The position numbers and the translations under genes are program-made. DNA of 64,000 bases. Source: an uncultured Holophaga sp. (lineage in GTDB: Bacteria > Acidobacteriota > Holophagae > Holophagales > Holophagaceae). The stretch is taken from the NCBI GenBank assembly GCA_963664825.1, contig OY761614.1, positions 96,001 to 160,000 of the forward strand. Reading direction: 5' to 3'. Below the pieces are notes generated by a model that saw only the letters and a list, made by a program, of their open reading frames with translations, did not search any database and was not told where the DNA came from. Positions 23,567-61,958 of the stretch are shown here, piece after piece; position 1 is the stretch's first letter, and every line of letters starts with the position of its first letter.

Positions 23567-23581
23567 AGCCGAGGAGCCCCC

Positions 23582-46167: not shown

Positions 46168-46204
46168 TCTGGCGCTGAGGGCTTCCTCCAACGGATGGGA
46201 AGAC

Positions 46205-46253
46205 AACAAAAGTGCGGAAAACGGCTCCAGGAGCCGTTTCCCGCACTTTTGTT
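46205..46253. terminator. Bidirectional intrinsic terminator between convergent genes
   Basis: AACAAAAGTGCGGAAAACGGCTCC-A-GGAGCCGTTTCCCGCACTTTTGTT, with A and T tracts at the two ends. Confidence 0.75.
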
Positions 46254-46278
46254 CCATCGGTGGAATCGCGATCAGGGA

Positions 46279-47646
46279 TCAGTTCTGCACTTCTTCCACG
46301 AAGCTGTGGATGAGCTTCCGGGCGCCTTCGCGGCTGAAGACGAAGAAGAGTTCCTCTGGGCGCGGGGCGCGGCGGAAGTAATCCACGGCCATGACCCTGG
46401 GGAAGTCCTCCCGGCGGGGCTTGGTGCTCCCTTGAGCGCACTCGGCCTGCTCCGTGGGTGAGAGTCGGAGATCATGCATGCAGTCCAGGGCGAAGAGCTT
46501 GCGGCGCTGGGTATCAGCATCCACCGGGTGGGCGTAGACCCCTTCCACGGTCATGGGCCGACCTTCCCAGGGGGGCAGCGGTGCCGAGGTGCCGACCGGA
46601 CCATAGGGATACAGGTTCGGGCCGACATGGTTCGTGAAGAGCAGCAGCTTGACCGGGCTCTTCCATTTTTCGAGAGCCTCGATGGCCGCGACAGACGTGA
46701 ATTCGTGATCCCGGTGATTATCCAGGAAAGGATGGGGCATGACGATGATCGTGGGACGGACCTTCCGCAGGACGGCCCCCAGATCCTCCACCAGATGGGC
46801 CCAGGTGTTCGTCCGCGGCCCCTTGGACAGCATGTGGCCGATATTCGCCTTCCGGTACACCGAGACATCGCTATTGGGGCCGTACATCTCCGGAACGACC
46901 ACCGTGGGCTTGGTGTGCATGTCCTGGAGGCGAGCATCGAAGTACCCGAGATTGAAGCAGTGCTCAGGGGTAACGCCCCCCTGCCAAGGCACCGTCACGC
47001 TATCGACGGCCCTCAGGAAGCCCTTGAAACGGTACTGGGCCGCCGCATCACTGAACTGGTCGGCGTAGTTGGCGTCCCCGGCATTCCCGCAGGTGAGGGT
47101 GACGATGGTCGTGTTGCGACCCGCATAGAGTCCGAAGGCGGCGATCTCCGCATCGTCGGGATGGGGCGCCAGGATCAGGATCCGGGCCTTGGGATCCAGG
47201 CGATTGCTGAAGGTCCGCAGTGTGGCTCGTCCCGCATCGATCCCCACACCGTGACCCACGACCTCCACCACCTGGCCAACCGCAAAGTGTGCCCGGAGCC
47301 CCGTGAGATTCAGCCAGCGAAGGCCCTCAGCTCCCCGTTCGAGGTACTGTCGCACCCGGCAGGAACCGGTGGAGAATTCCACCCAGGGGTCGCCCTGCTC
47401 CCCTTCGAGAGCCCGCAGGCGCAGCCCCAGGAGCACCGTGTCCCAGGCCTGACCGCTGGGCCGGGTCCAGGACCAGCGCACGCCGCCGGCCATGGCTTCG
47501 AGATCCAGGGTGCGCGCCCCGGCCTCTTGGGTGAATTGGTAGGTGTCATCGCCCTTGCCGAGGGCGGGTAGGCCTGGCGCTAAGGCCGCCCCCAGAAGCG
47601 CAAGGGCGGCGGCCCGAATGGAATTCCGGATCAGAGAGGAGGGCAT
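46279..47646 (-). CDS. Exported PIG-L/LmbE (CE14) family deacetylase
   Basis: Signal peptide, ILAPHPDDAE, DNHRDH. Confidence 0.8.
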   Translation of the reverse strand: MPSSLIRNSIRAAALALLGAALAPGLPALGKGDDTYQFTQEAGARTLDLEAMAGGVRWSWTRPSGQAWDTVLLGLRLRALEGEQGDPWVEFSTGSCRVRQYLERGAEGLRWLNLTGLRAHFAVGQVVEVVGHGVGIDAGRATLRTFSNRLDPKARILILAPHPDDAEIAAFGLYAGRNTTIVTLTCGNAGDANYADQFSDAAAQYRFKGFLRAVDSVTVPWQGGVTPEHCFNLGYFDARLQDMHTKPTVVVPEMYGPNSDVSVYRKANIGHMLSKGPRTNTWAHLVEDLGAVLRKVRPTIIVMPHPFLDNHRDHEFTSVAAIEALEKWKSPVKLLLFTNHVGPNLYPYGPVGTSAPLPPWEGRPMTVEGVYAHPVDADTQRRKLFALDCMHDLRLSPTEQAECAQGSTKPRREDFPRVMAVDYFRRAPRPEELFFVFSREGARKLIHSFVEEVQN

Positions 47647-47667
47647 GGAACGGCTCCTTGGGCGCCA

Positions 47668-48318
47668 TCAAAGGCGCGATTTGTTTTCGAGAGCGAACTT
47701 GAGGAGACTGTAGCTCCCGTGGATATTAAGCTTCGTGCCGATGTGGGCGCGGTGGTTTTCGACGGTTCGCTGGCTGACGAAGAAGGCCTCGGCGATCTCC
47801 TTGCTGGTCTTGGATTCAGCGATCAGCTTCAGGACCTTCCGTTCCATGGGCGAGAGCGCGTTGAGGGGCATGTTGCGAATGCCTAGGGCGGGCTGCGCCC
47901 GGCGAGCGACCATCAGGTCCATGAGGGAGGGGCTGAGGAAATGGCGACCGCGCACGACGGTGTCGATGGCCGTCACTACATCGATGACGGCCGATTCCTT
48001 CGAGACGTAGCCCATGACGCCGAGATCCATCGCCTCATTGAAGGTCTCTTCGTCGTCGTACATCGTCAGGAAGATCACATCTGTGGCCAGGTTCTTCTGA
48101 TGCATCTCCCGCAGGACCTGGAGGCCGGTGAGATTGGGCATGCGGATATCCAGCACCGCCAGATCGGGCCGTCGCGTCTCGATCTCGCAGAGCGCAGCGG
48201 CGCCGTCGGAGGCCTCGGCCACCACTTCCAAGGTGGGAACCCCCTCGATGGCCTGGCGAATCCCCGCCAGAAACAGAGGATGATCGTCGGCGATCACCAC
48301 CGAGACCCTAGGCGCCAT
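47668..48318 (-). CDS. NarL/LuxR-family response regulator
   Basis: IADDH, LDIRMP, LSPMERKVL...TSKEIA...TVENHR HTH. Confidence 0.92.
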   Translation of the reverse strand: MAPRVSVVIADDHPLFLAGIRQAIEGVPTLEVVAEASDGAAALCEIETRRPDLAVLDIRMPNLTGLQVLREMHQKNLATDVIFLTMYDDEETFNEAMDLGVMGYVSKESAVIDVVTAIDTVVRGRHFLSPSLMDLMVARRAQPALGIRNMPLNALSPMERKVLKLIAESKTSKEIAEAFFVSQRTVENHRAHIGTKLNIHGSYSLLKFALENKSRL

Positions 48319-49516
48319 GGGCCCCTCCCAGGATCGGCAGGAGGACCGTGACCGTGGTGCCCCGCCCCCGCTCCGAATTCAGTTCCAGCTCCCCCCCGGC
48401 CATGTGTGCCCGCTCCGACATGATCATCAGCCCGAAACTCGCATGGCGTTCGGAGCCCTGGGTGAGGGATTCCACGTCGAAGCCGCACCCGTCATCGACG
48501 ATCCTCAGGAGCACGTTATCCCCGGTCCGGTGCAGCACCACCGCCAGGTTCTGCGCCGAGGCGTGCTTCACCAGGTTATTGAGACTCTCCTGGGCGATGC
48601 GGTAGAGATTGATTTCCGCATCCGTGGAAAGCAGCCGGTCCACGGGTTCAATATCGGTGGTGAAGGCGATGCCGGTGCTCTTAGACAAGCGCCGCACCAT
48701 CGATTCGATGCTCTTGCTGAGCCCCAGTTCATCGATCTGGTGGGGCCTGAGGGTGTGGGAGATCTCGCGCACATCCTGGATGCATTCGGTGACCAGGGCG
48801 ATGGCATCGTTGACCGCGCCGGAGGGTTCCTCCCCCTGCTGCACAGCCCGCAGCCCCAGCAGAAGCTGATTCTTGACCAGGAGGAGCTTCTGCCCGATGT
48901 GGTCGTGGAGTTCACCGGCGATCCGCTTGCGCTCCCCTTCTTGGGAATCGATGAGCTGGCGCGCGAACTTCTGATGCACAAGGCTCTCGCGCATCGCCTC
49001 TTCCATCTTCTTGTGGGAGGTGATGTCCCGGCTCACGCCCACGATCCCGATGACCTCTCCCTGGAGATCCCGCAAGGGCACGGTGGTGGTCAGGTGCCAG
49101 CCCCAGGAATCGGTCACGGGGTAGTAGTTCGGCTCCTCGCGGCTGATGAGGGACTGCCCCGTATCCATGACCCGCTGCTCGTCATCGTAGAATTGCTGGG
49201 CGAGATCCCTGGGGAAGAAATCGAAATCCGTCTTGCCGATCACCTGCTCGGGCTGGAAACCCAGGTTCTGAGCCACAGCAAGGTTGTTGACGATGAAGCG
49301 GCTCTTCCGGTCCTTAACGTAGATGTAGTCCGGCACGTTATCGATGACCGTACGCAGGAGCTTGCGCTCCACACCGAGTTCACCTTCGCGGCGTTCCCGT
49401 TCCGCGATCTCCGCGGCCAGCTCCCGGGTGCGCAGCTCCACCAGCCGTTCGAGATCGGCCTGGGAGTCCTGTGCGGGTTTCATCGGTTCAGCCATGCCTA
49501 CTCCAGGAGGGTTCAT
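48308..49516 (-). CDS. Soluble PAS sensor kinase (HisKA_3)
   Basis: PAS (IYVKDRKSRF, GKTDFDF), ERKRIAGELHD, ESLNNLVKH, DDGCGF; no TM helices. Confidence 0.9.
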   Translation of the reverse strand: MNPPGVGMAEPMKPAQDSQADLERLVELRTRELAAEIAERERREGELGVERKLLRTVIDNVPDYIYVKDRKSRFIVNNLAVAQNLGFQPEQVIGKTDFDFFPRDLAQQFYDDEQRVMDTGQSLISREEPNYYPVTDSWGWHLTTTVPLRDLQGEVIGIVGVSRDITSHKKMEEAMRESLVHQKFARQLIDSQEGERKRIAGELHDHIGQKLLLVKNQLLLGLRAVQQGEEPSGAVNDAIALVTECIQDVREISHTLRPHQIDELGLSKSIESMVRRLSKSTGIAFTTDIEPVDRLLSTDAEINLYRIAQESLNNLVKHASAQNLAVVLHRTGDNVLLRIVDDGCGFDVESLTQGSERHASFGLMIMSERAHMAGGELELNSERGRGTTVTVLLPILGGAHGA

Positions 49517-49536
49517 CCTCCATTCTCCCCTTTCGA

Positions 49537-50349
49537 TCAGCGGAGTGCCAGGCGCTCCAAGTCCCTGAATTCGGCCCATTCGGGTTCATTGGCGAATACC
49601 CACCGGTAGTATTCCTGGCCGCTCAAGGATGTGGCGGCCTCTTCGTCGACCACCACCTGGCAGCGGGGATGCAGTTGGAGTGCCGAGGCAGTCACCATGG
49701 CGGTGATGGGCCCCTCCACGGCCCGGGCCAGGATCGCGGCCTTGGAAGCCCCCGTGGCCAGGAGCAGGCAGCGCCGACAATCCAGGATGCTGCCCACGCC
49801 CATGGTGATGGCGCGCCGGGGCACCTTGGCAAGATCCCCCCCGAACATCTCGGCATTCTGCGCCAGGGTGGCCGGCGTCAGCGCCTTTTCGCGGGTGCGG
49901 GAGAGCAGCGCGGAGAGCGGTTCGTTGAAGCCGATATGGCCGTCTCCCCCGATACCCAGCAGCTGGAGATCGATGCCACCCAGCTCGCGGATGCGCTCCT
50001 CGTAGGCGCGGCATTCCGCCCCGAGATCCGCCGCCGTTCCATCGGGCAGATGCGTATGCTCCGGGCGAATATTCACCTTCCCGAAGAGATGTTCCTCCAT
50101 GTAATGCCGGTAGCTCCCGGCATCCCCCGAGGGGAGGCCGATGTACTCGTCGAGGTTGAAGGTGTGACAGCGGGAAAAATCCAGGCCCTCGCGCTCGTGA
50201 AAGACCGCCAGGTAGGCGTAGACCCGCTCCATGGTCCGCCCCGTGGCCAGGCCCAGTATCAGGTTGGGCTTGGCGCGCAGTTCCTTGGCGATGATCCGTG
50301 CCGTCAGAAGCGCGGCCTTATGGCGATCAGGAACGATGATGACTTCCAC
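49537..50349 (-). CDS. nagB: Glucosamine-6-phosphate deaminase
   Basis: GLATGRT, FNLDEY, GIGGDGHIGFNEP, TMGVG, AS.LQLH. Confidence 0.95.
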   Translation of the reverse strand: MEVIIVPDRHKAALLTARIIAKELRAKPNLILGLATGRTMERVYAYLAVFHEREGLDFSRCHTFNLDEYIGLPSGDAGSYRHYMEEHLFGKVNIRPEHTHLPDGTAADLGAECRAYEERIRELGGIDLQLLGIGGDGHIGFNEPLSALLSRTREKALTPATLAQNAEMFGGDLAKVPRRAITMGVGSILDCRRCLLLATGASKAAILARAVEGPITAMVTASALQLHPRCQVVVDEEAATSLSGQEYYRWVFANEPEWAEFRDLERLALR

Positions 50350-50364
50350 AAACTCTCCTCAGGT

Positions 50365-51216
50365 TCAGGCCAGTGCGTCCAGCCCAAGGGCGGCGGCCCC
50401 CAGGATGGCGATCTGGGGTTCCTCGCTCACGCGCACGATCAGACGCTGCAGGGCCCTCTGGTAGGCGAAATCCGAAAGGACCTTGTGCATGCTCTTCTCG
50501 AAAAAGGGGAAGGCCTTGGCAACCGATCCCCCCAGCACCACCACCTCGGGATCGAAGGCATAGAGGGTCGTCATCATCACTTGGCCGAAATCCTCGCCGA
50601 AGTCCGAAAGGATCTTCAGGGCCTCCGGGTCCCCCTTGATGGCTCGCGCGTGGATGATTGCGCCATTCTGGCCGTGATCCCGGGGAAATACCTGGCCGCT
50701 GGCGTAGTATTCGAAGGTCTTGCCCCGGTAGGGAATGCTGCCGAGTTCCCCAGAGCCACAGTTCGCCCCCGAGTACAGATGGCCGTTCAGGATGACGCCT
50801 GCACCCAGTCCCGTGCCCAGCGTCATGCCCACCATGTGGCGAAAGCCCCGCCCATGGCCATAGTGGAATTCCCCCACGGCAAAGCAGTTGGCGTCGTTGT
50901 TGACATAGACGGGAACGCCGAACCGCTGCTCCAGGAGATCCTTGAGAGGGACCTCCTGCCAGGAGGGAATGTTCTCGACGGTGTAGACGATGCCTCGCTC
51001 CACGTCCACCACACTGGGCACGCCGATGCCGATGGCGGCCGTCTGCGGCGTGAACACTTCACTGATCACCGAGCAGAGTTCTTCCAATACGATATCTGCC
51101 GAAGCCTTCGAAGGCGTGGCCCGGCTGGCATGGGCCACGATGGTTCCGGCCTCGATGCGGCCGACGCGCATGTGGCTTCCGCCCAGATCAACCCCGATGA
51201 GAATGCGTGAATCCAT
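50365..51216 (-). CDS. ROK-family sugar kinase (no HTH, no Cys-rich Zn motif)
   Basis: IGVDLGGS, VNNDAN, LGTGLG, GELG. Confidence 0.88.
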   Translation of the reverse strand: MDSRILIGVDLGGSHMRVGRIEAGTIVAHASRATPSKASADIVLEELCSVISEVFTPQTAAIGIGVPSVVDVERGIVYTVENIPSWQEVPLKDLLEQRFGVPVYVNNDANCFAVGEFHYGHGRGFRHMVGMTLGTGLGAGVILNGHLYSGANCGSGELGSIPYRGKTFEYYASGQVFPRDHGQNGAIIHARAIKGDPEALKILSDFGEDFGQVMMTTLYAFDPEVVVLGGSVAKAFPFFEKSMHKVLSDFAYQRALQRLIVRVSEEPQIAILGAAALGLDALA

Positions 51217-51226
51217 ATAGGTACCT

Positions 51227-52492
51227 TCAGACGTTTTCAGGCTTCGGTTCTTTGGCCTTCCCGATCGTCGCGTTGACGATCAGGGGGCGCGCCCAGAAGG
51301 CGATGCCGATGATGTAGGCGATGGTCCCCAGCAGAGGCAGCATGCCGAAGCGGAGCCCGAAATGATCCCCGATCCGGCCGATGAGGGGAGGCAGGATCGC
51401 GCCCCCCACGATGCCCGTGCAGAGGATGCCGGCGAAGGAACCGTGATGTTTCTCCACGGAATTCAGCGCCAGGGACAGGATGATGGGCCACCCCACCGAG
51501 CACCAGAAGCCCATCAGGGGCAGGCCGATGAGGGCCATGGAACGGCTCCCGAAGAGGGCCACCAGCAGCGTGATCGCGCCGCCCATGAAGAAGACCCCCA
51601 GGATCTTGCGGGAATCGAAGAACTGGAGCAGCACCAGGCTCACCGCGCAGCCCAGGGTCATGGCGCCCCAGAACCCGGCCACGGCCACCTTGTTCACCAG
51701 GTTGGGATCCACGTGGTGATAGTCCAGCAGGAATTTCTTGATCCAGATGGCCACCCCTTGTTCGGTGCCCACGTAGCAGATGACGCCGATGAAGTAGAGC
51801 CAGACGGTGCGGGTCTTGAGCAGCAGCAGGATCGTCTCGAAGGAGCCGACCTTCTCGTCATCCTTCAGCTGCATGGTGGGCAGCTTGACGCAGGAGACCA
51901 CCAGCACCATGGCCAGCAGCACGATGGCGAAGACCCAGTAGAGGGAGATCCAAGGCAGGCCGGGCTTCACCACCTTCTCCAAGAGGCCGAAGATGCCATG
52001 CTGGGCCAGGCTGGGATCCTTGAGATGGCCCACCAAATACCCGTAGATATAGGGGCTCACGGTGGAGCCCAGGGCGAAGATGAGCTGAGAGGCATTCCCC
52101 CAGAAGGCGTAGTGTTCCTCGCCCCCCGCCACTCGCAGCAGCGGGTTGATGACCACCTGGAGCATGGCGAACCCGGCGCCGATGAGGAAGAGCGAGGGCA
52201 GCGACAGGATGTAGGTGGGCCGGAAGGCAAACGCGAAGGCGCCCAGACAGGAGAGCAGGAACGCGCTGATGAGCACGGGCTTGGCCTTGTAGCGTTCCAC
52301 CAGCATGCCGGCGGGGATGGACATGACCGCGTAGGCGATGAAGAGGGCCGTGGCCATGTAGCCCAGCTGCTCGTTGGTCAGGCAGAAGGAGGCCTGCACA
52401 TCCGATCCCATGGGATCGATGATGTTGGTCACGAAGGAAATCGCCACGAAGATCAACATGATCAGCAGGACGATGAGGTGATTGCGTTTCAT
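51227..52492 (-). CDS. MFS sugar permease (FucP/GluP/NagP-like)
   Basis: 12-TM pattern, MSIPAG, LQVVINP, YVGTEQG, GIVGGAILP. Confidence 0.85.
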   Translation of the reverse strand: MKRNHLIVLLIMLIFVAISFVTNIIDPMGSDVQASFCLTNEQLGYMATALFIAYAVMSIPAGMLVERYKAKPVLISAFLLSCLGAFAFAFRPTYILSLPSLFLIGAGFAMLQVVINPLLRVAGGEEHYAFWGNASQLIFALGSTVSPYIYGYLVGHLKDPSLAQHGIFGLLEKVVKPGLPWISLYWVFAIVLLAMVLVVSCVKLPTMQLKDDEKVGSFETILLLLKTRTVWLYFIGVICYVGTEQGVAIWIKKFLLDYHHVDPNLVNKVAVAGFWGAMTLGCAVSLVLLQFFDSRKILGVFFMGGAITLLVALFGSRSMALIGLPLMGFWCSVGWPIILSLALNSVEKHHGSFAGILCTGIVGGAILPPLIGRIGDHFGLRFGMLPLLGTIAYIIGIAFWARPLIVNATIGKAKEPKPENV

Positions 52493-52508
52493 CGAGGGCC
52501 TTTCAGGG

Positions 52509-55109
52509 TTATTTGAGAAGGTTCCAACCATTGAGGGTGATGCGCGGTGTTTCACCGCGGAGCTCCACGCCCGGCAGGCGCACGCGGATCCTCCGAGCCT
52601 CGTGGGGCAGCAGCGAAAGGTAGTTGTCGTCCCAGAGCACCGGCAGCAGAGGTTCTCCGGAAGGCCTCACCACGCCCAATTCCAGGCAGAAGGCGATGTG
52701 CTCCGACGTATTGGTGAGTGTGATCTCCGCACTCCAGTCTTTGCCGGACACCGAACGCTGTTCCAGCTTCACCCGGGCCACAGGCAGCTTGGCCAACGCA
52801 GTGAAATCGGCGAAGGAGCTATTGGGTGTGACGAACCAGGTGGTCTTGGCCTCGTCGAGCACATCGGGCTGGGTAGAGAGCCAATAGAAATTGTCGGCCA
52901 GGGCCTTGCCGCCGGGCCCACTCAGGCGCAGATCCAGGAAGTGGATGGGGCCGCCGCCGGAGTCCTTCAGCTCGAGCACCTTGCGGGAATGGTTCGGCAG
53001 GCAGGGCACCGTGATCTCCTGGCTGGAGGCCAGGGTGGAATCGGCGCGGAAGATCCGAGCCCTCACCGTGACTGCCTTCAGCTCCTGGAGGGTGTCGTTC
53101 ACCAAATGCACGGACCCCGTTCCATAGTCGTAGACCACGTTCAGGGGCTGGGAACCCTTGCGGGCGCCGTAGAAGGCGCCATTGGGCATGAGGAAGGTGT
53201 CGTAGAGCTGCCAGAAGAACTTGGGCCAGGCGCCATTGAGCATCCACTGGACCACGCCGGTGGCCTTGGGCCGGTTGGCGCCGAAGGCCTCGTACATGGC
53301 CCGCATGGCCTCATAGTTGGCGGCCTGGGCCCTGAAGGCGAAGTCCTCCACGGATTTCGATTCCCCGTAGCGGGCGTTGAAGGCCTTCAGGTAGATATCC
53401 AGATTGCCGAACTGGAAGCGCCCGCAGTGGAAGTTCCAGGCCTCGTTGATGGGCCAGAGTTTATCGGCGGGAAGCATGCGCTGGAGGGTCGAGAGCGGGG
53501 GGATCTGCGGACCGGGGCCGGTCTCGGTATTGAAGCCGAAGGCCCCGCCGTTCTTGGTATCCACCCACCAGTAATTGGGCGTCACGTAATCGTAGGGCCC
53601 CGCCATCTTCACCGCGGAAGATCCGCTGAGAGGGCTGGTCAGCTCCTTGCAGGACCTGAGCAGAGGGCGCGAGGGATCCAGGACCTTGAGATCGGCGACG
53701 TAGCGTTTCTCCACCTCGGGCCAGGGCAGCTTGTCGCTGCCCACCACCCACACCAGGAGGCTGGGATGGTTGCGCAGCCAGCGCACCTGATCCCGCAGAT
53801 AGCCCGTCACCCGTTCGATCTCCAAGGGTTCCTTGGGACCTCCGAAGGTCTCGCTCTCCACGATGGGTTTGCCCAAGTACTCGGGCCATTCCCACTGGCA
53901 GCTCCACCCCACCATCAGCAGGATGCCTTCGCGGTCAGCCAGGTCATAGAGCCGCTGGCTGCTGCCCCAGAAGCCCTCCAGCCGCACGGTGTTGAGGTTC
54001 ATGTGCTTGACGTAATGGAACTGGGCCTCCAGGTTCTTCGGATCCTCCCGGAGAAACAGATCGTCCACCCAACCCGCCCCGCGGATGAGCACTTTCTGGC
54101 CATTCACCATGTAGCCGCGCTGTCCTTGAGCGTTGAGGTAGTCGGCTACCTGCCGGATGCCGAAGGTGACCCCGCATCCATCGCTGAGGCTGGAACCCGC
54201 TTGGGCGCTCAGTTCCAGACGATAGAGTTCGGCCTTGCCGAGGTTATGGGGCCACCAGAGGCGGGGATTGCGGATGCGCAGGGCGGGCACCTGGCTGGGC
54301 CCCAGGCGCAAGGCCTGCCGCTCACCGGCCTTCAGGACATAGGGCACCTGGAAGTGGATCTCCCCGATGGAACCCTTCAGAGTCCCGGTCTGGGCATGAT
54401 CCTCACGATTGATCAGTTTGAGACTGATTTCCAGGGAGGCTTCCTTCAGCGTCTTGAGATCCACGGTACTGCGGACGCAGACCTCCTCCATCGCCACGGC
54501 CCCCGTTCGGTGCAGCTTCACCTCGCGGAAGATCCCCATATTGCGATCGGGAGGCAGGGGGTTCCAATCCACGAAACCCATGGTGAAATCCCCGGGCTGG
54601 GGCGGGAAGACCTCCACGGCCAGGACATTGACGCCCTTGGCGAGGCCGGAGCCGATATCCAGATCGAAATTCCGGAAGGCGCCGCAAATCGCGTCCCGGC
54701 CCGCGATCTGTTTGCCGTTCAGCCAGATATCGGCCCGGAAGTTGAGCCCATCGAGGCGGAGCCGCGTGTGGGAGCCATCCCCGGGGTCTTCGACGATAAA
54801 TTCCGTGCGGTACCACCAGCCCTGTTTGAAGGGTTCCGAGGAGATGGCCGCCAGGTTCTGGCCGAAGAAGGGATCCTTGTGGACACCGTTCCGCACGAGA
54901 GTCGCCATCACGGTGGAAGGCACCTCGGTGGGGAGCCAACCCTTGGCCTTGAAACCGGGCCGCGAGATCTCGGCCCCCGGGGCCCCGGCCTTATCGGCGG
55001 CCTGGAGCACCCAACCCTGCTCCAGCCCTTGGGTGGAGCCCAGCTTCGGCTGGCTGGGCGCCGCCATCAGGATCGAGGCACAGAGCAACCCAGCCCATCT
55101 CGTCATCAT
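52509..55109 (-). CDS. Exported GH2 exo-beta-D-glucosaminidase (CsxA-like)
   Basis: Signal peptide, DWNP.PPD.N.GI, NTVRLEG, NHPS..VWVVGSD (SD in place of NE), GPYDY, FNTET, QWMLN.AWP. Confidence 0.8.
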   Translation of the reverse strand: MMTRWAGLLCASILMAAPSQPKLGSTQGLEQGWVLQAADKAGAPGAEISRPGFKAKGWLPTEVPSTVMATLVRNGVHKDPFFGQNLAAISSEPFKQGWWYRTEFIVEDPGDGSHTRLRLDGLNFRADIWLNGKQIAGRDAICGAFRNFDLDIGSGLAKGVNVLAVEVFPPQPGDFTMGFVDWNPLPPDRNMGIFREVKLHRTGAVAMEEVCVRSTVDLKTLKEASLEISLKLINREDHAQTGTLKGSIGEIHFQVPYVLKAGERQALRLGPSQVPALRIRNPRLWWPHNLGKAELYRLELSAQAGSSLSDGCGVTFGIRQVADYLNAQGQRGYMVNGQKVLIRGAGWVDDLFLREDPKNLEAQFHYVKHMNLNTVRLEGFWGSSQRLYDLADREGILLMVGWSCQWEWPEYLGKPIVESETFGGPKEPLEIERVTGYLRDQVRWLRNHPSLLVWVVGSDKLPWPEVEKRYVADLKVLDPSRPLLRSCKELTSPLSGSSAVKMAGPYDYVTPNYWWVDTKNGGAFGFNTETGPGPQIPPLSTLQRMLPADKLWPINEAWNFHCGRFQFGNLDIYLKAFNARYGESKSVEDFAFRAQAANYEAMRAMYEAFGANRPKATGVVQWMLNGAWPKFFWQLYDTFLMPNGAFYGARKGSQPLNVVYDYGTGSVHLVNDTLQELKAVTVRARIFRADSTLASSQEITVPCLPNHSRKVLELKDSGGGPIHFLDLRLSGPGGKALADNFYWLSTQPDVLDEAKTTWFVTPNSSFADFTALAKLPVARVKLEQRSVSGKDWSAEITLTNTSEHIAFCLELGVVRPSGEPLLPVLWDDNYLSLLPHEARRIRVRLPGVELRGETPRITLNGWNLLK

Positions 55110-55180
55110 GGAAGCCTCCTTGTGTGCCTAGATCGTCGTGTCACAGATCGTCGTATTCGTTCAAAGGCGAAGAGGATCGA

Positions 55181-55211
55181 AGGGCGTCAAGGGAAAGCCC
55201 CGAGACGCCCT
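55181..55211 (-). terminator. Intra-operon hairpin between the OM module and the GH2 gene
   Basis: AGGGCGTC...GACGCCCT stem with a weak U-tract. Confidence 0.4.
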
Positions 55212-55224
55212 CTAGGTTCGAAAC

Positions 55225-55815
55225 CTAGAAATGCCAGCGCAGCCCCAGTTCGCACCAGGCCGGGTTGATGCCGCCGCGGCGGACCAGGGGATCCTGCAGA
55301 TCCTTGCCCGCCAGCTCCGTCTGCTGGAAGACCAACTCGGCGCTCCAGCTCTTGGAGAAGGCGTAGCTCACGCCAAGGCGCAGGCCCATCTTGAGGCCCT
55401 TGACGTCGCGCACCGGGAAGTGGTGGGCCACATCGGCTTCATCTTCGGATTCCGTGCCCGTGCGGGACATGGAATAGCTGTTCAGGGATAGACCCACCAG
55501 GGCCTTCAAGGCCGGAGAGGGTGTCTCGATGAAGACATCCCCGTGGATCTGGGCCAGGGTGAGGGAGGTCTTGAGACCATTCGATTCGGAGCCGGGCATG
55601 CTGGCGAAGGTGAGGCCCAACCGCGCAGGGATATCGGTGCCCACGACCTGAGTGCCGTAATCGGCGCCCAGATGGAAGCCCGTCGTGCCATTGGTCGCCT
55701 TCTTCAGGCTATCAAAGCCCATCAGGACACCGCCTTCGACACTGAATCCAGTGCCCTGGGCCGCCAGGGGCAGCACCAACAGACCGAGCAAGGAGCCGCG
55801 TAGAGTCTTGAACAT
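55225..55815 (-). CDS. Small outer-membrane beta-barrel protein
   Basis: Signal peptide, alternating beta-strand pattern, C-terminal LGLRWHF. Confidence 0.7.
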   Translation of the reverse strand: MFKTLRGSLLGLLVLPLAAQGTGFSVEGGVLMGFDSLKKATNGTTGFHLGADYGTQVVGTDIPARLGLTFASMPGSESNGLKTSLTLAQIHGDVFIETPSPALKALVGLSLNSYSMSRTGTESEDEADVAHHFPVRDVKGLKMGLRLGVSYAFSKSWSAELVFQQTELAGKDLQDPLVRRGGINPAWCELGLRWHF

Positions 55816-55838
55816 GAATTCCCCTTCCTATGCCGAGA

Positions 55839-58800
55839 TCAGAACTTCAGGCCGACACTGAATTCAGTGAAGGTGCGGCCGCCGCTGTAATAGGTGTTGT
55901 CGTTGCCCGTGCCCCAAGCCTGGCTGAAACCGCCCAGGGGACGCCCGGTGATGGGCGAACTGTTGCCGACCGAACCGCCCGTGCCGAACTCGGCGGTGCC
56001 GTTGGAGGAGCCGCTCCAGTCGTAGACGCTGATTCTCTGAAGGTGATTGAAGATGTTCTTGATCTGCACGTAGGTCGTGAGCATGACCTTACCGGCGAGG
56101 GGCATCTGGGCCTGCAGCTTCACGTCGACGGTGTAGATATCCGTGCCCCGGGTGAAGGCACCCATGGGCGAGGAATAGGTGTTGTAGTTCAGCAGGATGT
56201 TCTGACCCGCGACGTTATCGATGGGCTGCACGCTGTAGCCGTGGAACGCGGCATTACCCGTATCGACGTCGGCCACCTTGAGGACCCCGACACCATTGGG
56301 TGTCCTCACACCGGAGGTGGAGTAGGTCGCCAGGGTCGAAGCCGAGACATTCCCCTTGCCGATGGGCACCACGTAGGTAAGGAAGGCATGCAGGACCTGG
56401 GAGCGGCTGAGCACACCCTCGGGTGCGAAGACATCCTCGCTCAGGCCATTCCGCAGTTTCTCGTCCCGGTAGTTGTAGTAATCCAGCGCATTCCGGCCCG
56501 TGATCTGGGACCAGGTGTAGTTGCCGCCGAAATTCAGCCGAGAGGTGATGGCCTCGTTCCAGGCCAGCTCGACCCCGCGGTAGATCTGCTCGAGACCCGA
56601 ATTCAGGAAACGATGGGTCTGTTGCCACTGGGGAGCGCCCAGGCCACTGGGATCCTGGACCAGGGTCAGGTACTTCGTGGGATCCGCAGGATCGTAGTAG
56701 CCATCATGGACGAAGGAGAGCCACTCCTTCTTGTAGGTGCGCTGCACGAAATTGAGGCGCACCGAACCGGTGTCGAAGTTCCGCATGTAGCCCAGGGAGA
56801 ATTCGATCGCGTAGGGCACCTGGAGGCCCGCAGTCTTGGCGGTCTGACTGAGATCGATGATGGCGCTGGGCGCGCCGTAGTTGGCAGGATCGATGAGGGT
56901 GTTGTAGTCCACCCAGCGGACGCCGCTCAGGGGGTCGGAGTCAATGTTATTATCATCGACCGCCAGCTGGCCGGGGAGCCCCTTCCAGGCATGCACCGTG
57001 CGGGTGGTCCAGCCGTTGGTGCGGAACCAGGCCGCCATCTCGTCGGAATAGGCGCTGGCCAGCTTGGCCGCCGTGAAGGTGTAGATCTCCTGGCCCTTGC
57101 CATCGGGGTTCCACTTCAACTGGAGGCGGGGCTCCGTGACATTGATATCGGCCAGGCTCCGTTCGCTGGTATCGCGGATGGCGAACCTGTTGTAGCGGAG
57201 GCCCAGCATCAGATTCCAGTTCGAATCGAGGGTCCAGGTGTCGTTGAGCCAAAGGCCCGTGCTGTTATTCTTGGCCGCCGACTGGCCGGCCCAATAGCGC
57301 TCCATGTAGGCACCGGGGCCGCGCATGGGGAGTTCCCCGTACTGCACGAGGGCCTGATCCGCCTGGCCATTGCTGTCCAGGGGCACCAGAGAGGCGGAGT
57401 TCGCATAGAAGGTGGGATAGAGGTAATCCTTGGTGTCCGGATTGTAGATGAAGCCACCCTCGAAGACCCCGCGGTTGCCGCTCCGCTCCCGTCCGAACTG
57501 ATGTTTGGTCTGGAAGTACTCGGCGCCGAAGTCGATCTCGTGCTGGCCCGCCGCCTCCTGGAAGGTCTTGACATTGAAATTGAGGGACTGGTTGCCCCGG
57601 ATATTGGGGGTGATATCACTGGAGGAGCGGCGATTGTAGAAGGAGCCGAAGTATCCGGCCTGGCCGTTGCCCGAGGCCATGCCCTGGTTGTCCGTGCTCA
57701 GGATCTGGATATTGGGATCGCCGGTGCTCAGCTGGGATTGAACGAAGATCGGGTATTGGGTCGGCCCCGTCACATCGTTGAGCTTGACTTCGGCCTTGAA
57801 GGCCCGCATTTCCAGGAACCAGTGCTCGTTGATCGTGGAATTCCACCCGAGGGTCCAGGCCTTGGTCTCCGTCGTGAGATCCCCGACGAAATCCTTGTCC
57901 AGGGCCGTGTTGGGGGGCGAGGTGCGCTCTCCGGTGTACCCGCCCTGCACGGTCTTGTCGGTGAGGTAGGTCAGGGCGAGCGTGTTGTTATCATTCACCA
58001 GGAAGGTGAGCTTGCCCTCGTACTTGTGGTAGGTGGTATCGGCGGGCACTACGGAATTCCAGTCCGTGTACTTCGAGATATCGAAGTTCCCATACCCCGT
58101 GGGATAGGGGGTGCCGACGCCCTTGAGCACATTGTCCACCTTGGGGAAGGCCCCCCAGGTGACCATGGGGTACTTCATCACCGACGACAGGGTGGCTCCG
58201 GGAATGACATCCCACCCGCCGCTGGCATTCTTCTGCACGGGCACACCGTTCCACCCCAGGGTGGCGGTACCTGACTGGGAGGGCTGGACGCGGGTTCCCA
58301 CGTAGAACCAGAGGCGATCCTTGATGATGGGGCCGCTGAAGGTGATATCGGTGAAGCGGGAATAGCTCTCCACCGCGTTACTCTCGCTGGCGGCGTAATC
58401 GCTCCCGGCCACCGGGCCGTGAGGCAGATCCGTGGTCCAGGAGGGACGGCTGAAGGTGGTGCGGATGCTGCCTTCGAAGGTATTGGAACCCGTCTTCGTG
58501 ACGACATTCACCTGGCCCCCCTGGCTCCGCCCATGGCGGGCATTCAGGGCCGAGAGCACCACCTGCACATCCTCGATGGAATCCGGAAGAGGCTCATAGA
58601 GCTGAGCCCGGGCCGGGCCATCCCACTGGGTGCCCGTATCGTCCTTCACATCGATGCCATCGATGCGGTACATGACCTGGGAATAGCCCCCCCCGGCCTT
58701 GGTCTGTCCTCCGAAGCTGCCGCCCCGGATGCTCGTGCCCAGGCCCGAGCCCGTGACGCCGGGGGCCAAGGCCAGCGCGCCATCAAAGGAGCGGTTCGTG

Positions 58801-59249
58801 GGCAGCTTGAGGAGTTCTTCGGCGGAATAATTGACGCTCACCTTATCGGCGGTCTTGGCTTCCTGAGCCGTGGCCACCACTTCCACGACGGCGCCGGTCT
58901 CCTTGAGGAGCGTGAGCGAAAAGTCCAGGCTGAGGTTGCTGCCCAGGCCCACGCGTACTCCCGTGGCCGTCTTGCCCAGCCAGCCATCGGCGCTGACCTT
59001 CACGGTATAGGTGCCCACGGGCAGGAGCTGGCCTCGGTACTCGCCCTTGGCATCGGTCTTCAGGACCCTGGGGTGGAAGAGAGCCGGGCTCTCGAGGCTG
59101 ACGCGCACGCCGGCAATGGGCCGGCCCGCGTTATCGGTGACATGCCCCGCCAGGGCACCGGTGGTGACCTGGGCCACCAGGGCGGCATTCCCCGCGAGGA
59201 GGACGGCCAGCGTCGAGAGTTTCAATCCATTACGAATAATCATGATCAT
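55839..59249 (-). CDS. TonB-dependent receptor with N-terminal carboxypeptidase-regulatory-like domain (Oar type)
   Basis: GALAGHVTD..G.PIAGV, plug LAPGV...YRIDG...GGQVNVVTKTGSN, SGPIIKDRLWF, C-terminal VGLKF. Confidence 0.9.
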   Translation of the reverse strand: MIMIIRNGLKLSTLAVLLAGNAALVAQVTTGALAGHVTDNAGRPIAGVRVSLESPALFHPRVLKTDAKGEYRGQLLPVGTYTVKVSADGWLGKTATGVRVGLGSNLSLDFSLTLLKETGAVVEVVATAQEAKTADKVSVNYSAEELLKLPTNRSFDGALALAPGVTGSGLGTSIRGGSFGGQTKAGGGYSQVMYRIDGIDVKDDTGTQWDGPARAQLYEPLPDSIEDVQVVLSALNARHGRSQGGQVNVVTKTGSNTFEGSIRTTFSRPSWTTDLPHGPVAGSDYAASESNAVESYSRFTDITFSGPIIKDRLWFYVGTRVQPSQSGTATLGWNGVPVQKNASGGWDVIPGATLSSVMKYPMVTWGAFPKVDNVLKGVGTPYPTGYGNFDISKYTDWNSVVPADTTYHKYEGKLTFLVNDNNTLALTYLTDKTVQGGYTGERTSPPNTALDKDFVGDLTTETKAWTLGWNSTINEHWFLEMRAFKAEVKLNDVTGPTQYPIFVQSQLSTGDPNIQILSTDNQGMASGNGQAGYFGSFYNRRSSSDITPNIRGNQSLNFNVKTFQEAAGQHEIDFGAEYFQTKHQFGRERSGNRGVFEGGFIYNPDTKDYLYPTFYANSASLVPLDSNGQADQALVQYGELPMRGPGAYMERYWAGQSAAKNNSTGLWLNDTWTLDSNWNLMLGLRYNRFAIRDTSERSLADINVTEPRLQLKWNPDGKGQEIYTFTAAKLASAYSDEMAAWFRTNGWTTRTVHAWKGLPGQLAVDDNNIDSDPLSGVRWVDYNTLIDPANYGAPSAIIDLSQTAKTAGLQVPYAIEFSLGYMRNFDTGSVRLNFVQRTYKKEWLSFVHDGYYDPADPTKYLTLVQDPSGLGAPQWQQTHRFLNSGLEQIYRGVELAWNEAITSRLNFGGNYTWSQITGRNALDYYNYRDEKLRNGLSEDVFAPEGVLSRSQVLHAFLTYVVPIGKGNVSASTLATYSTSGVRTPNGVGVLKVADVDTGNAAFHGYSVQPIDNVAGQNILLNYNTYSSPMGAFTRGTDIYTVDVKLQAQMPLAGKVMLTTYVQIKNIFNHLQRISVYDWSGSSNGTAEFGTGGSVGNSSPITGRPLGGFSQAWGTGNDNTYYSGGRTFTEFSVGLKF

Positions 59250-59273
59250 TCTCCGCGAATCGTCAGCCGCAGG

Positions 59274-60053
59274 CTAGAAATGGAAGACGTAGCCGAACTC
59301 GAAGTGCGGCACGAAGCGGGTGGTCTTGGTGAGCGTGTCGCCAGGGAAGGCGTTGTGGGGCGCGATTCGGCCCGCAGCCGGATCGGAATCGGGGTCCACA
59401 TCCCACGCGTAGGTGCCCGTCCCGGGCTGATGGAGGTAATTCAGGGCGGTGTAGCTCAGCGCCATGACATTGAGCTCCAGGTTGGAGTGAGGGCTGATCT
59501 TCCAGGACACACCCACGTAGGGGCTGACCTTGATTCCGCCCTCCGAGGGCGTTCCCGAGTAGGTGTCGCGCCAGGACGCGTAATTGTCGCCGGTCCAATT
59601 CACGCCGCTGACATCCCCGAAATATTCGTGTTTGAAGCGGGTCCCGCCGAGCATCACGCCGGCCTGCCAGCCCCAATCAGGATTGAAGGGACGGGCGAAG
59701 GAGAGACGCACGGAAAAGCCGTCCAGCTGATTGCGCCGGGAATCCCCGGATTTGGCCAGATCCACCGGGTCCAGCGTATAGGGAGCCGCTCCGGCCACGG
59801 GCTCGATATAGATATCCCCGGTCTTGTAGTAGTAGCCCACCTCCAGCCCAAGGGTCCCGAAGGACATGCCGTAGCCGAAGTTGAGCCCAAGGCCCAGCGA
59901 GGACTGCCGCAGATGATCCATGGACTGGGGAGACCAGGCCGTGCGGACCTTGAGTTCCTTGGTGAACCCCGTTTCCTGGGCCTGGGCGGTTCCGAACACC
60001 GCGGCTGCCACCAGCAGCCCCCGGCCGAACAGGGAAACACGATGCGTGAACAT
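59274..60053 (-). CDS. Outer-membrane beta-barrel protein
   Basis: Signal peptide ending AQA, aromatic-rich beta strands, C-terminal FGYVFHF. Confidence 0.7.
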   Translation of the reverse strand: MFTHRVSLFGRGLLVAAAVFGTAQAQETGFTKELKVRTAWSPQSMDHLRQSSLGLGLNFGYGMSFGTLGLEVGYYYKTGDIYIEPVAGAAPYTLDPVDLAKSGDSRRNQLDGFSVRLSFARPFNPDWGWQAGVMLGGTRFKHEYFGDVSGVNWTGDNYASWRDTYSGTPSEGGIKVSPYVGVSWKISPHSNLELNVMALSYTALNYLHQPGTGTYAWDVDPDSDPAAGRIAPHNAFPGDTLTKTTRFVPHFEFGYVFHF

Positions 60054-60155
60054 GAACTGACTCCTCACAATGAATGGACGCTGACTCATATCTCGATTCC
60101 AGGGCAGGCGGCCTCCGCGAGTGGCAGAGGGGCCGCCGTTCCTGCGATGAATGTC

Positions 60156-61232
60156 CTACTGCAACCCTGCGATCGCGGCCTTCCAGTACCTGGCATCCTC
60201 TTGACCCAGGGACCAGACGGAAAGGCCAGCCAGGTTGTACTTTTTCACGAGGGCCGCCTTGGCCTGGATGCTCTCGGGGTTCTCGAACCAGGCCTCGTGC
60301 TTGTGCCCATCCTTGCTCTCATAGGTCACGGAAGGCGAAAGCGTCGTGGCATCCCAGTGATTGACGGCCGTGGGATTGGCGAGCCATTCGCAGAACGTCG
60401 TCCAGGGCACGTAGGAGAAGGGATAGGCCCCGTCCTGGGCATAGGCTGTCAGATCCCAATCGTAGCCGTAGGCGGGAAGGCCCAGGAGCAGCTTGGAGGG
60501 GCTCACCACCGTGGCCGCGTACGCCGCGCATTCCTCCACCCAATCGGCGCCCGCGATGGGACCGGGATCGCTCCACGTGGGTCCATTCTCGTCGTAGGTC
60601 ATCAATTGGAGCAGGTCCGCGTCAATACCGATGGCCGCGTAATCGAAGGCTCCGGCCCAATCATCGGTGGGATCGTCCTCGCTCATCGCAGGCACGCTGA
60701 GCGCCAGCTTTAGGCCCGAGGCGTGGAGTTTGACCGCGAGTTCGTGCACGAACTGGCTGTAGGCGGCCCGGTCGGCGGGATAGAGGCCCTCGAAATCCAG
60801 ATTGAAACCCTGGAAGCCCCCATCCTTGGTCAGGGCCACGAAGCTATCGATGACCTTGTCCTTGTGGGTGACCAGGGCGCTGTGGCCCAGGTCGGCATTG
60901 AAATCACCGCCCAGGGCATTATCCACGTAGGTATAGGAACGGATGTTATTGGTCTTGTTGAAGGGGAGCAGCTCGCTATTGAAGAGGCTGCCGATCAGGT
61001 TGCAGTCCGCATCCAGGCTCATTCCGCCTTCGGCCACATCGCTGAGGCAGCTGCTATTGGATTTCACGGACTGGAGCACAAGAGGCGATCTGCCGGCGAA
61101 ATAGCCGTACACGATCTTGCTGGTGGCCTTGGGAGCGGGAGCCTTGTCGGAGTTTCCCCCCCCACAGGCCAAGGAGAGGGTGGCCAATAGCGCCACCCCC
61201 ATGGAAAGTCCCACTGAGCGAAGCTGCTTCAT
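60156..61232 (-). CDS. GH18 glycoside hydrolase lipoprotein (chitinase/N-acetylglucosaminidase-like)
   Basis: Lipobox LSLAC, FQGFNLDFE, LMTYD, LGLPAYGYDW, GLSVWSLGQED. Confidence 0.88.
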   Translation of the reverse strand: MKQLRSVGLSMGVALLATLSLACGGGNSDKAPAPKATSKIVYGYFAGRSPLVLQSVKSNSSCLSDVAEGGMSLDADCNLIGSLFNSELLPFNKTNNIRSYTYVDNALGGDFNADLGHSALVTHKDKVIDSFVALTKDGGFQGFNLDFEGLYPADRAAYSQFVHELAVKLHASGLKLALSVPAMSEDDPTDDWAGAFDYAAIGIDADLLQLMTYDENGPTWSDPGPIAGADWVEECAAYAATVVSPSKLLLGLPAYGYDWDLTAYAQDGAYPFSYVPWTTFCEWLANPTAVNHWDATTLSPSVTYESKDGHKHEAWFENPESIQAKAALVKKYNLAGLSVWSLGQEDARYWKAAIAGLQ

Positions 61233-61451
61233 GACTCGATCTCCAGAAGGTGCCGAGGGGAAGAATCCCGGATAGGGAACGTGATATTGGGGCAAGAACC
61301 GACTCTTCATCAGAAATGAATACTCATTCAAGATCCTTGATCCCGACCCCGGGGGCAATGATGGGGCCCACTCTTTATGCATGAGTAGAACCACTCAATC
61401 TCAAATGGATCCATCCTTGGATACGTAACGATTCACCCTTCCGAGGCATCC

Positions 61452-61880
61452 ATGCGAGCTATCTCCCTAGCCTTCCTCTTAGCCCTCCCCCTGCTGAGCC
61501 AAACACCAGCGGAGCGGATCAGCAGCGGATTCAAGACCCTCCGCACGGGCAGCTGGACGGACGCCTTCCGGGAATGGGAACAGCAGGCCCTGCCCTTCGC
61601 TCCGGTGGACCCGGAGCCCCGGAAGGTGCTGGAGGAATGGGTTCCCAAGACCTGGAGCCTCGGTACCTGGGAACTCCTCCAGACGAGCCCCTTGAGCACG
61701 ACTTGGCAGCGGCAATGGTGGCTGGCCAGCTTCGACCAGGGTGTGGTCTTCTTCACCTTCGATTGTGTGAAGCACAAGGGCGAATGGCGAGTGTTCCGCC
61801 TTCAGGTCTCGCGAGACCCCGCAGCCGTCCTGCCCGGCCTGGACCTCTATTCGGGGCTCGCGGCTCGCAACAGAGAATGA
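61452..61880 (+). CDS. Hypothetical exported protein
   Basis: Signal-peptide-like N-terminus, GAGG RBS, host-like codon usage. Confidence 0.6.
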   Translation: MRAISLAFLLALPLLSQTPAERISSGFKTLRTGSWTDAFREWEQQALPFAPVDPEPRKVLEEWVPKTWSLGTWELLQTSPLSTTWQRQWWLASFDQGVVFFTFDCVKHKGEWRVFRLQVSRDPAAVLPGLDLYSGLAARNRE

Positions 61881-61958
61881 GGTCGCCTTTACATCTGCAA
61901 CCACGCATCCCCATCAGGCGGTGCATGAAGGCAGAAGCCCCGGGTTCACAGACCCAGT

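Follow-up and report, generated by a model that had tools for sequence, protein, structure and literature searches.

An eleven-gene locus of an uncultured Holophaga sp. predicted to release glucosamine from chito-oligomers by means of an exported CE14 deacetylase and a CsxA-type GH2 exo-glucosaminidase

A cluster of eleven genes has been identified in a stretch of 64,000 nucleotides (positions 96,001 to 160,000 of contig OY761614.1, assembly GCA_963664825.1; the window hereafter) from an uncultured Holophaga sp. It is rather probable that the cluster encodes a module for the use of glucosamine (GlcN) oligomers joined by an exported deacetylase of carbohydrate esterase family 14 (CE14), which would deacetylate the non-reducing ends so that an enzyme of glycoside hydrolase family 2 (GH2) could release GlcN stepwise. 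All eleven open reading frames (ORFs) are on the minus strand and run from 61232 to 46279 in the order GH18, OMP2, TonB-dependent receptor, OMP1, GH2, MFS, ROK, NagB, PAS kinase, NarL regulator and CE14, where OMP stands for outer-membrane protein. This order and strand, given in a preliminary description made from the sequence letters and an ORF list, agree with the ORF list, and the family searches bear out its statement that nagA, GH20 and GH3 are all absent within the locus. The genome of this locus (G000) is a single contig, 96.6% complete. The two genes central to the proposal are as follows.

46279-47646, minus strand: CE14/PIG-L (LmbE-like) de-N-acetylase, predicted exported, 455 aa (PF02585, 58.1 bits)
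52509-55109, minus strand: GH2 exo-beta-D-glucosaminidase, CsxA orthologue, predicted exported (2VZS match, PF18368)

The GH2 protein is highly similar to CsxA, an exo-beta-D-glucosaminidase of Amycolatopsis (PDB 2VZS; E-value 1.4e-160, residues 31-863) and has been assigned the Ig_GlcNase domain PF18368 of Pfam. The preliminary description had noticed that SD, in the motif VVGSD, takes the place of NE at the acid/base position. The motif corresponds to residues 455-459, of which S458-D459 aligns with S468-D469 of CsxA, and E378 and E529 align with E394 and E541. For CsxA, contact with the free amine is assigned to E394 and the acid/base role to D469, which follows S468 (PMC6566704); the enzyme has been characterised on chitosan (PMC6097792). 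Among the 69 distinct GH2 matches in the fetched loci, 65 span all the key positions and 64 of these keep the equivalents of E378, S458-D459 and E529. Only one lacks them, a paralogue of 29% identity in genome G110 that carries W and N-E and adjoins a GH5 gene. Residue E541 of CsxA is the position changed to Ala in PDB entry 2VZT, and we take it, like GH2 E529, to be the nucleophile.

The full-length match and the kept residues strongly support the classification of the GH2 as a CsxA-type exo-beta-glucosaminidase, which the preliminary description had proposed. That description had also named beta-mannosidase activity as an outcome that would speak against its proposal. It is hardly credible that the GH2 is a beta-mannosidase in a locus for mannan or N-glycans. 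Among the matches, GH2 beta-mannosidases come second (best E-value 1.5e-30), 130 orders of magnitude behind CsxA; the protein has the Ig_GlcNase domain, the S-D pair and the counterpart of E394, and NagB is encoded in the same cluster. The W/N-E paralogue beside GH5 in G110 exemplifies the other type. The beta-mannosidase reading has been rejected on the CsxA match and these residues.

The CE14 protein has a hydrophobic N-terminus followed by a beta-sandwich (residues ~36-146) and a catalytic Rossmann domain. The term exported, as used here for the proteins of the locus, refers to such N-terminal hydrophobic stretches and not to the output of a signal-peptide predictor. The motifs H162-P-D164-D165 and D309-x-H311-x-D313-H314 are intact in all of the 120 listed homologues, 109 of which also have the N-terminal hydrophobic stretch; the metal motif of LmbE-like proteins has been defined as HxDD+H (PMC4101496). 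The AlphaFold model (mean pLDDT, the predicted local distance difference test score, 85.3) matches seven chains of the LmbE fold with Z 15.9-18.2, the next unrelated row being at Z 7.1. The match to BC1534 has Z 18.2 (root-mean-square deviation 3.3, 193 aligned), and that to the archaeal deacetylase PhDac has Z 17.5 (2.8, 204 aligned) and is tied with those to BC1534, LnmX and GalB. The metal motif and the Rossmann-type fold of the model thus both point to membership in the LmbE-like family. The N-terminal beta-sandwich has not been accepted as a proven carbohydrate-binding module (CBM), as its CBM-like matches reach only Z 6-7, the level of the background. A plasmid search with the CE14 gave only remote PIG-L matches. 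A kinship to DnpA (PA5002) of P. aeruginosa is assumed from a resemblance of motifs.

The association of CE14 with CsxA has been followed in 159 loci of CE14 homologues: of 143 confirmed in genomes the best 79 were taken, and of 175 confirmed in metagenomes the best 80. A homologue was counted as linked when CsxA was found within 10 kb, and 67 of the 159 loci were too short to tell. CsxA is in the locus of 23 of the 25 informative homologues with at least 50% identity (15 more too short), of 2 of 8 between 45 and 50% (9 too short) and of none of the 59 below 45% (43 too short). In the tree (FastTree), which omits 48 of the 159 loci owing to short matches or to short loci below 45% identity, every CsxA-linked row belongs to one clade of 45 rows with an SH support of 99. 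The functional coupling of CE14 and GH2 put forward in the preliminary description has thereby gained firmer support from comparative genomics (23/25 vs 0/59) than could be drawn from one sequence. The synteny search in relatives that it had called for has revealed, in a genome of the same family, a fully syntenic locus which lacks the GH18 only (L022 and L039, which are identical DNA).

Three gene orders of the CsxA-CE14 pair, spanning two phyla, have been identified. In Holophagaceae the response regulator is followed by CE14; in Vicinamibacteria-like loci CsxA directly adjoins CE14, which comes after it; and Steroidobacteraceae-like Gammaproteobacteria have the order receptor-CsxA-sulfotransferase-MFS-CE14-(NagB/SIS). 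The partner GH2s of the linked CE14s fall in three separate subclades (FastTree), which suggests that the pairing arose repeatedly.

A genome-wide profile search of G000 gave no nagA (best matches at most 20.5 bits, cut-off 225.65) and no match to GH20. Outside the locus, the genome holds a single GH3, which carries a NagZ motif and shows no evident signal peptide, and also AnmK; we infer that these two serve cell-wall recycling. Where CE14 is linked to CsxA or to its MFS (14 genomes), GH20 is found in 2 genomes and nagA in 3. No genome of the 133 in the order has both nagB (present in 29) and nagA (present in 11), and nagB is present in 10 of the 11 CsxA-bearing Holophagaceae genomes. An exported CE14 with no GH20 found characterises G000, G038 and G107 of these eleven, whereas GH20 without such a CE14 is the state of G110, G053, G041, G026, G015, G116 and G008; in the eleventh, G105, both are missing, on a contig that stops 190 bp past the regulator. 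Exported CE14 and GH20 thus exclude each other in 10 of the 11 genomes, a count which is suggestive and not statistical since most are incomplete metagenome-assembled genomes (MAGs) and the genomes are related.

The post-regulator slot of G110 (same genus, GH2 84% identical) is taken by a protein without family assignment, a cytosolic PIG-L, a sugar transporter and GH20. A cytosolic PIG-L also adjoins nagB in the GH20 loci of G026, G041 and G015. Cytosolic PIG-L and the conserved 457-488-aa protein have been observed beside nagB in GH20 loci at L281:2846-5088, L026:7149-8615/16138-17004, L027, L028 and L280. The 457-488-aa protein has no Pfam, NCBIfam or PDB match, and its label as kinase-like comes from a GxDLG motif seen by eye. 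The GH20, the transporter, the putative kinase-like protein and the cytosolic PIG-L form a candidate for a second NagA-free route, in this case for N-acetylglucosamine (GlcNAc).

The remaining features of the locus are as follows.

60156-61232, minus strand: GH18 single-domain predicted lipoprotein, SleL/YaaH-like (PF00704, E-value 8.6e-32; ORF open from 61394, likely start 61232)
59274-60053, minus strand: OMP2, predicted beta-barrel of the outer membrane (Atlas match of 0.96 to clusters of OMP beta-barrels, which is a lead only; ORF open from 60089)
55839-59249, minus strand: predicted TonB-dependent receptor with an N-terminal carboxypeptidase-regulatory-like domain (PF13620, E-value 1e-16; TIGR01786, E-value 4e-7)
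55225-55815, minus strand: OMP1, small predicted outer-membrane beta-barrel (PF13505, E-value 1.5e-5, below cut-off)
51227-52492, minus strand: GluP/FucP-like MFS permease, predicted glucosamine importer (PF07690; TIGR01272, 113.7 bits, below cut-off; ORF open from 52555)
50365-51216, minus strand: short ROK-family sugar kinase, predicted glucosamine kinase (PF00480, E-value 1.4e-46; below every NCBIfam cut-off)
49537-50349, minus strand: NagB glucosamine-6-phosphate deaminase (TIGR00502, 265.9 bits, cut-off 236.9)
48308-49516, minus strand: soluble PAS-HisKA_3 histidine kinase (PF08448, PF07730, PF02518; ORF open from 49579, likely start 49516 or 49495)
47668-48318, minus strand: NarL/LuxR-family response regulator (PF00072 and PF00196; same slot in relatives)
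46207-46251, minus strand: terminator-like hairpin of 20 pairs with a T-rich tail, a consensus match only, between the CE14 gene and a converging CheZ-like gene

In the proposed pathway the GH18 lipoprotein would shorten soluble chito-oligomers made by other organisms, and these would be taken up in a TonB-dependent manner through the receptor flanked by the two small beta-barrels. Gene context suggests that deacetylation by CE14 would alternate with cleavage by the GH2 in the periplasm, the last GlcNAc also needing CE14 as is the case with archaeal Dac. The GH2, whose assignment as an exo-beta-glucosaminidase is strongly supported by orthology, would release GlcN one residue at a time. The MFS permease would import GlcN, the ROK kinase would phosphorylate it, and NagB, predicted from its equivalog match, would yield fructose-6-phosphate and ammonia. 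As only free GlcN would enter the cytoplasm, GH20 and NagA would both be unnecessary. The GH2 and NagB are assigned by orthology, while the substrate of CE14, the localisation, the specificity of transporter and kinase, the role of the GH18 and the regulation are predicted. A wider proposal, which we hold to be evenly balanced, is that the clade of two-domain exported CE14s comprises periplasmic exo-deacetylases of chito-oligosaccharides paired repeatedly with CsxA in Holophagaceae, Vicinamibacteria and Steroidobacteraceae, giving a complete GH20-free and NagA-free route that leads from chitin oligomers to fructose-6-phosphate, which Holophagaceae would swap at the same locus with the GH20-based NagA-free route.

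A number of observations weigh against the pathway, which is predicted from sequence and gene context. The CE14 is remote from archaeal Dac (E-values 0.11-0.24 with phmmer and 0.005-0.02 with a profile), so that its substrate is predicted from the gene context. Of 401 Acidobacteriota genomes sampled, 43 have CsxA, and just 3 of the 43 have a close CE14 as well, which in two of them (G187, G202) is on another contig; CsxA therefore does not need CE14. The clade members L044 and L046 have 10 kb upstream without CsxA, and L122, L128, L129 and L143, which are short loci, show other upstream genes. Distant relatives of the CE14 are found in glycosyltransferase or lipopolysaccharide (LPS)-type clusters, in PQQ-dehydrogenase cassettes and in arabinan-type loci, and some adjoin a protein of 1,240-1,275 aa with a DnaE-like N-terminus. 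Homologues of the MFS (45-47% identity) are also present in arabinan-type loci of Bacteroidales, so that the specificity of transporter and kinase is putative. Of the 14 CE14-linked genomes, 2 were found to have a GH18; no close orthologue of the GH18 of the locus is present in 132 relatives, and it is absent from their matching loci. Only 11 of the 133 genomes of the order have nagA, which is missing from the other 122, and its absence is therefore the default of the lineage and not diagnostic. Incomplete MAGs make up many of the genomes compared (G107 76%, G038 84%), and related genomes do not count as independent cases.

Two claims of the preliminary description have accordingly been narrowed. 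The bypass of NagA stands in so far as nagA and GH20 are absent genome-wide, and the absence of nagA, common to 122 of 133 genomes, has been discarded as positive evidence. The likeness of the CE14 to Dac holds for the LmbE fold and the metal motif and not for orthology. TkDac and PhDac are single-domain proteins of ~270 aa with no signal peptide; the remote E-values, the length of 455 aa, the extra N-terminal beta-sandwich and the hydrophobic N-terminus have led us to reject the CE14 as a Dac orthologue. Although predicted to act like Dac, it is kept apart from the Dac group. CsxA, MFS and ROK form the conserved core, to which CE14 is an add-on.

It is rather unlikely that the main task of the CE14 is to deacetylate free GlcNAc in the periplasm, in the manner of CmCBDA, with the GH2 working in parallel on deacetylated chitosan oligomers and no alternation of the two. 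GlcNAc deacetylases such as CmCBDA are described (PMC8619855) and TkDac is reported also to take GlcNAc (PMC7880967); the position of CE14 directly after the MFS in Steroidobacteraceae-like loci and the clade members without CsxA would suit this role. The direct adjacency of CsxA and CE14 in Vicinamibacteria-like loci speaks against it, and the exclusion with GH20, a supplier of free GlcNAc, fits the unblocking of oligomers better; the extra beta-sandwich has CBM-like matches, though at background level.

A role of the CE14 in the envelope has also been considered. Here the locus would handle only fully deacetylated chitosan or free GlcN, with CE14 as a DnpA-like passenger and the GH18 as a recent unrelated insertion. 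In favour of this, the distant CE14 relatives lie among GT9, GT4 and GT2 genes, and dnpA, which is LmbE-like and of unknown substrate, is described within an LPS cluster (PMC6048251). The CE14 also comes last in the locus, after the regulators, most CsxA loci have no such gene, and an IS66 transposase (window 62769-64000) is situated 1.5 kb upstream of the GH18. Glycosyltransferase neighbours are seen, however, only among homologues below 45% identity, and the clade-restricted linkage to CsxA in three gene orders and the exclusion with GH20 speak against a passenger. As for the inserted GH18, a ~95%-identical contig from another study also bridges OMP2 and the 3' end of the GH18. We regard this alternative as very unlikely.

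The GH18 is an accessory that is outside the conserved module. Its best PDB matches are 5JH8 (E-value 2e-50) and 4Q6T (1e-39), both annotated as chitinases (PMC4684702), followed by the spore-cortex N-acetylglucosaminidases YaaH 4S3K (5.5e-33) and 4S3J (1.5e-28). The motif QGFNLDFE has the form N-x-D-x-E, with Asn at the first Asp position, and D146 and E148 are invariant in 14 aligned sequences. It is the only GH18 of G000 and has neither a chitin-binding domain nor LysM. The chitosanase families GH46 and GH8 were not found in G000 with controls that worked, a search that did not extend to lytic polysaccharide monooxygenases, GH5 chitosanases or AmgK/MurU, and GH46 is in none of 23 related genomes. 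The role of a chitin degrader making the oligomers, given to the GH18 in the preliminary description, has been weakened, this protein being SleL/YaaH-like and single-domain; as it has no binding module and the searches for a second GH18, for GH46 and for GH8 found none, scavenging of soluble oligomers is the better reading of the organism's way of life. The longest contigs with a 70%-identical CE14 cluster and with 54-56%-identical GH18s agree in size twice (29,761 and 56,164), a circumstantial hint that the GH18 goes with the locus in other genomes too.

These features of the GH18 bear on a further alternative, in which the substrate is another beta-GlcNAc glycan, such as fragments of necromass peptidoglycan cut by the GH18, treated by the same deacetylate-then-clip chemistry. 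The likeness to spore-cortex enzymes, the many homologues named 'spore germination protein YaaH', the missing chitin-binding domain and the sulfotransferase (14 loci) and NagX-like (3 loci) genes near related modules are in its favour. It is nevertheless unlikely, given that the best structural relatives are annotated chitinases, that LysM is lacking, that no MurNAc-handling gene was found among the neighbours scanned and that CsxA has been characterised on chitosan.

The loci of CsxA and of CE14 relatives have revealed several other associations. A sulfotransferase (PF13469) is encoded just upstream of the MFS at L139:6014-6910 and in 13 more loci (L047-L052, L055, L061, L135, L136, L140-L142); in Steroidobacteraceae-like operons it is between CsxA and the MFS whenever CsxA is on the contig. 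NagX-like membrane proteins are encoded at L119:6066-7271 (NF046061, E-value 1e-49, below cut-off) between ROK and nagB, at L023:5358-6536 in the place of nagB and at L031:2987-4189 directly after CsxA. Among 18 other Acidobacteriota CsxA loci fetched, 4 have CE4, YdjC or an unrelated PIG-L, selected ORFs only being considered. One such locus (L245:1458-14071) has CE4, an unrelated PIG-L with a hydrophobic N-terminus and YdjC side by side, together with GH3, GH42-like, ROK and LacI genes. The GH42-like protein was tried as a GlmA-like enzyme and rejected, being an ordinary member (E-value 2e-30 to beta-galactosidase, 1e-4 to the archaeal 5GSL).

Sister groups of the CE14 clade are linked to an MFS resembling nucleoside:H+ symporters, often together with a PQQ dehydrogenase, cytochrome c and a Gfo/Idh/MocA oxidoreductase (L057, L058, L059, L148, L150, L063-L066, L070, L072, L075, L108, L155, L163). 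They are candidates for a different, undescribed pathway of sugar acids or amino sugars.

The family calls of the receptor, OMP1 and OMP2 are weaker than those of the rest of the locus. OMP2 has no Pfam match; it has a C-terminal Phe and an N-terminal hydrophobic stretch, and is upstream of the receptor in relatives too. Orthologues of the receptor, 54-81% identical, occupy the same slot in relatives, where OMP1 is kept between the receptor and the GH2; G000 has 7 TonB_C matches. The triad of small barrel, receptor and small barrel (window 55225-60053) recurs as two tandem paralogous triads at G000:C1:949963-961343 and is found with GH5 and the W/N-E GH2 in G110, with related loci at L033, L027/L028 and L270. 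It may be an import module of Holophagaceae analogous to SusCD.

The MFS permease has 11 transmembrane-like segments and is encoded beside CsxA in many loci of Acidobacteriota and Gammaproteobacteria. The ROK kinase has no Cys-rich stretch after GELG. NagB scores above the equivalog cut-off and is the only nagB copy in G000. The PAS kinase has no transmembrane-like segment, and its orthologues (75-87% identical) are in the same slot; it is likely that this soluble kinase and the NarL regulator control the locus.

The intergenic distances across the eleven genes range from -11 to 115 bp and the GC content at third codon positions from 0.79 to 0.91. The 20-pair hairpin (46251-46207) is likely to be the terminator closing the locus; the scan gave 6 terminator-like sites against 9.9 in shuffled sequences, a count that is itself not significant, and 2 promoter sites against 3.0 expected by chance. 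A public contig of run X1, possibly the source sample, covers 49910-62707, and one of run X3 from another study covers 46135-54083, each with 0 differences, which supports the assembly of the locus. The IS66 element has a read depth more than 10-fold above that of the locus in runs X1, X3 and X4 and is thus multicopy in the samples; ISL3 (8109-9323) and IS256 (5587-6774) transposases are also present in the window.

Elsewhere in the window, a NuoF-like subunit and an NADH-dependent group A6 [FeFe] hydrogenase (NF040763, above cut-off) are encoded at 22331-25507, the latter being consistent with an anaerobic host. At 40804-42150 a dihydropteroate synthase (residues ~7-272) is fused to a C-terminal domain that resembles, by eye, a GNAT acetyltransferase. 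A BshC-like gene is followed by BshB1 (above cut-off) at 32103-33991, suggestive of bacillithiol-type biosynthesis in a diderm Acidobacteriota genome. This second PIG-L of the window (33272-33991) was considered as a member of the locus and rejected, as it is BshB1 and adjoins the BshC-like gene.

If the proposal is true, a substrate could be assigned to an uncharacterised CE14 clade in a family of more than 1,000 members. Soil and sediment bacteria without nagA and GH20, scored as non-users of chitin products, could still use them, which would bear on the flow of chitin carbon and nitrogen through secondary consumers. The mesophilic exported pair of deacetylase and glucosaminidase would also be a counterpart to the thermophilic Thermococcus enzymes used for obtaining glucosamine from chitin (PMC7880967).

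The chitin pathway of T. kodakarensis is described as comprising ChiA, the CE14 deacetylase Dac and GlmA of GH35 (PMC6566704, PMC7880967); such a route has so far been demonstrated in thermophilic archaea. The predicted logic of the locus is the same as that in the cited descriptions: a CE14 acts on the non-reducing GlcNAc and an exo-glucosaminidase removes GlcN, with no N-acetylhexosaminidase or NagA. The locus likewise encodes deacetylase and exo-glucosaminidase together without GH20 or NagA, one NagZ-motif GH3 being elsewhere in the genome. It differs in that the glucosaminidase belongs to GH2 and not to GH35, in that the CE14 is a two-domain protein of 455 aa with a predicted signal peptide and is remote from Dac (E-values 0.005-0.24), in the predicted periplasmic site with TonB-dependent uptake before and MFS, ROK and NagB after it, and in the single-domain GH18, which has no chitin-binding domains.

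A predicted alternative route through a deacetylase and GH9/GH2 enzymes is described for Chitinispirillum alkaliphilum and Chitinivibrio alkaliphilus (PMC4814513), which like the host of the locus are diderm anaerobes and for which periplasmic deacetylation followed by glucosaminidase, kinase and deaminase is proposed. In that paper GH20 and NagA are present as well and the route is a side path, with cytoplasmic cleavage and 15 unspecified polysaccharide-deacetylase candidates; the present locus would be the sole catabolic route, in one operon and with a defined CE14 clade. The remark of the preliminary description that such a system was not known in this lineage agrees with the literature, subscription papers and supplements aside, where no CE14 and GH2 CsxA operon or pathway was found for Holophagaceae, and is qualified by this similar route proposed in other diderm anaerobes.

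The locus CE14 has the HxDD+H motif and the Rossmann fold in common with the LmbE-like family including DnpA (PMC4101496, PMC6048251, as far as described there). Its distant relatives are in LPS and glycosyltransferase clusters, as is dnpA according to the latter paper, whereas its own neighbours are catabolic and not those of an LPS cluster, and its clade is tied to CsxA. The GH2 has the same catalytic module as CsxA of A. orientalis (2VZS), full length and with the equivalents of E394, S468-D469 and E541; the match stops at residue 890 of the 1032 of CsxA, the C-terminal binding module being absent here, and its gene stands together with those for a receptor, permease, kinase, NagB and deacetylase in a diderm bacterium. 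The deacetylate-first logic is already known, and what appears new, judged from the sequences, is the pair of a GH2 with a non-orthologous exported CE14.

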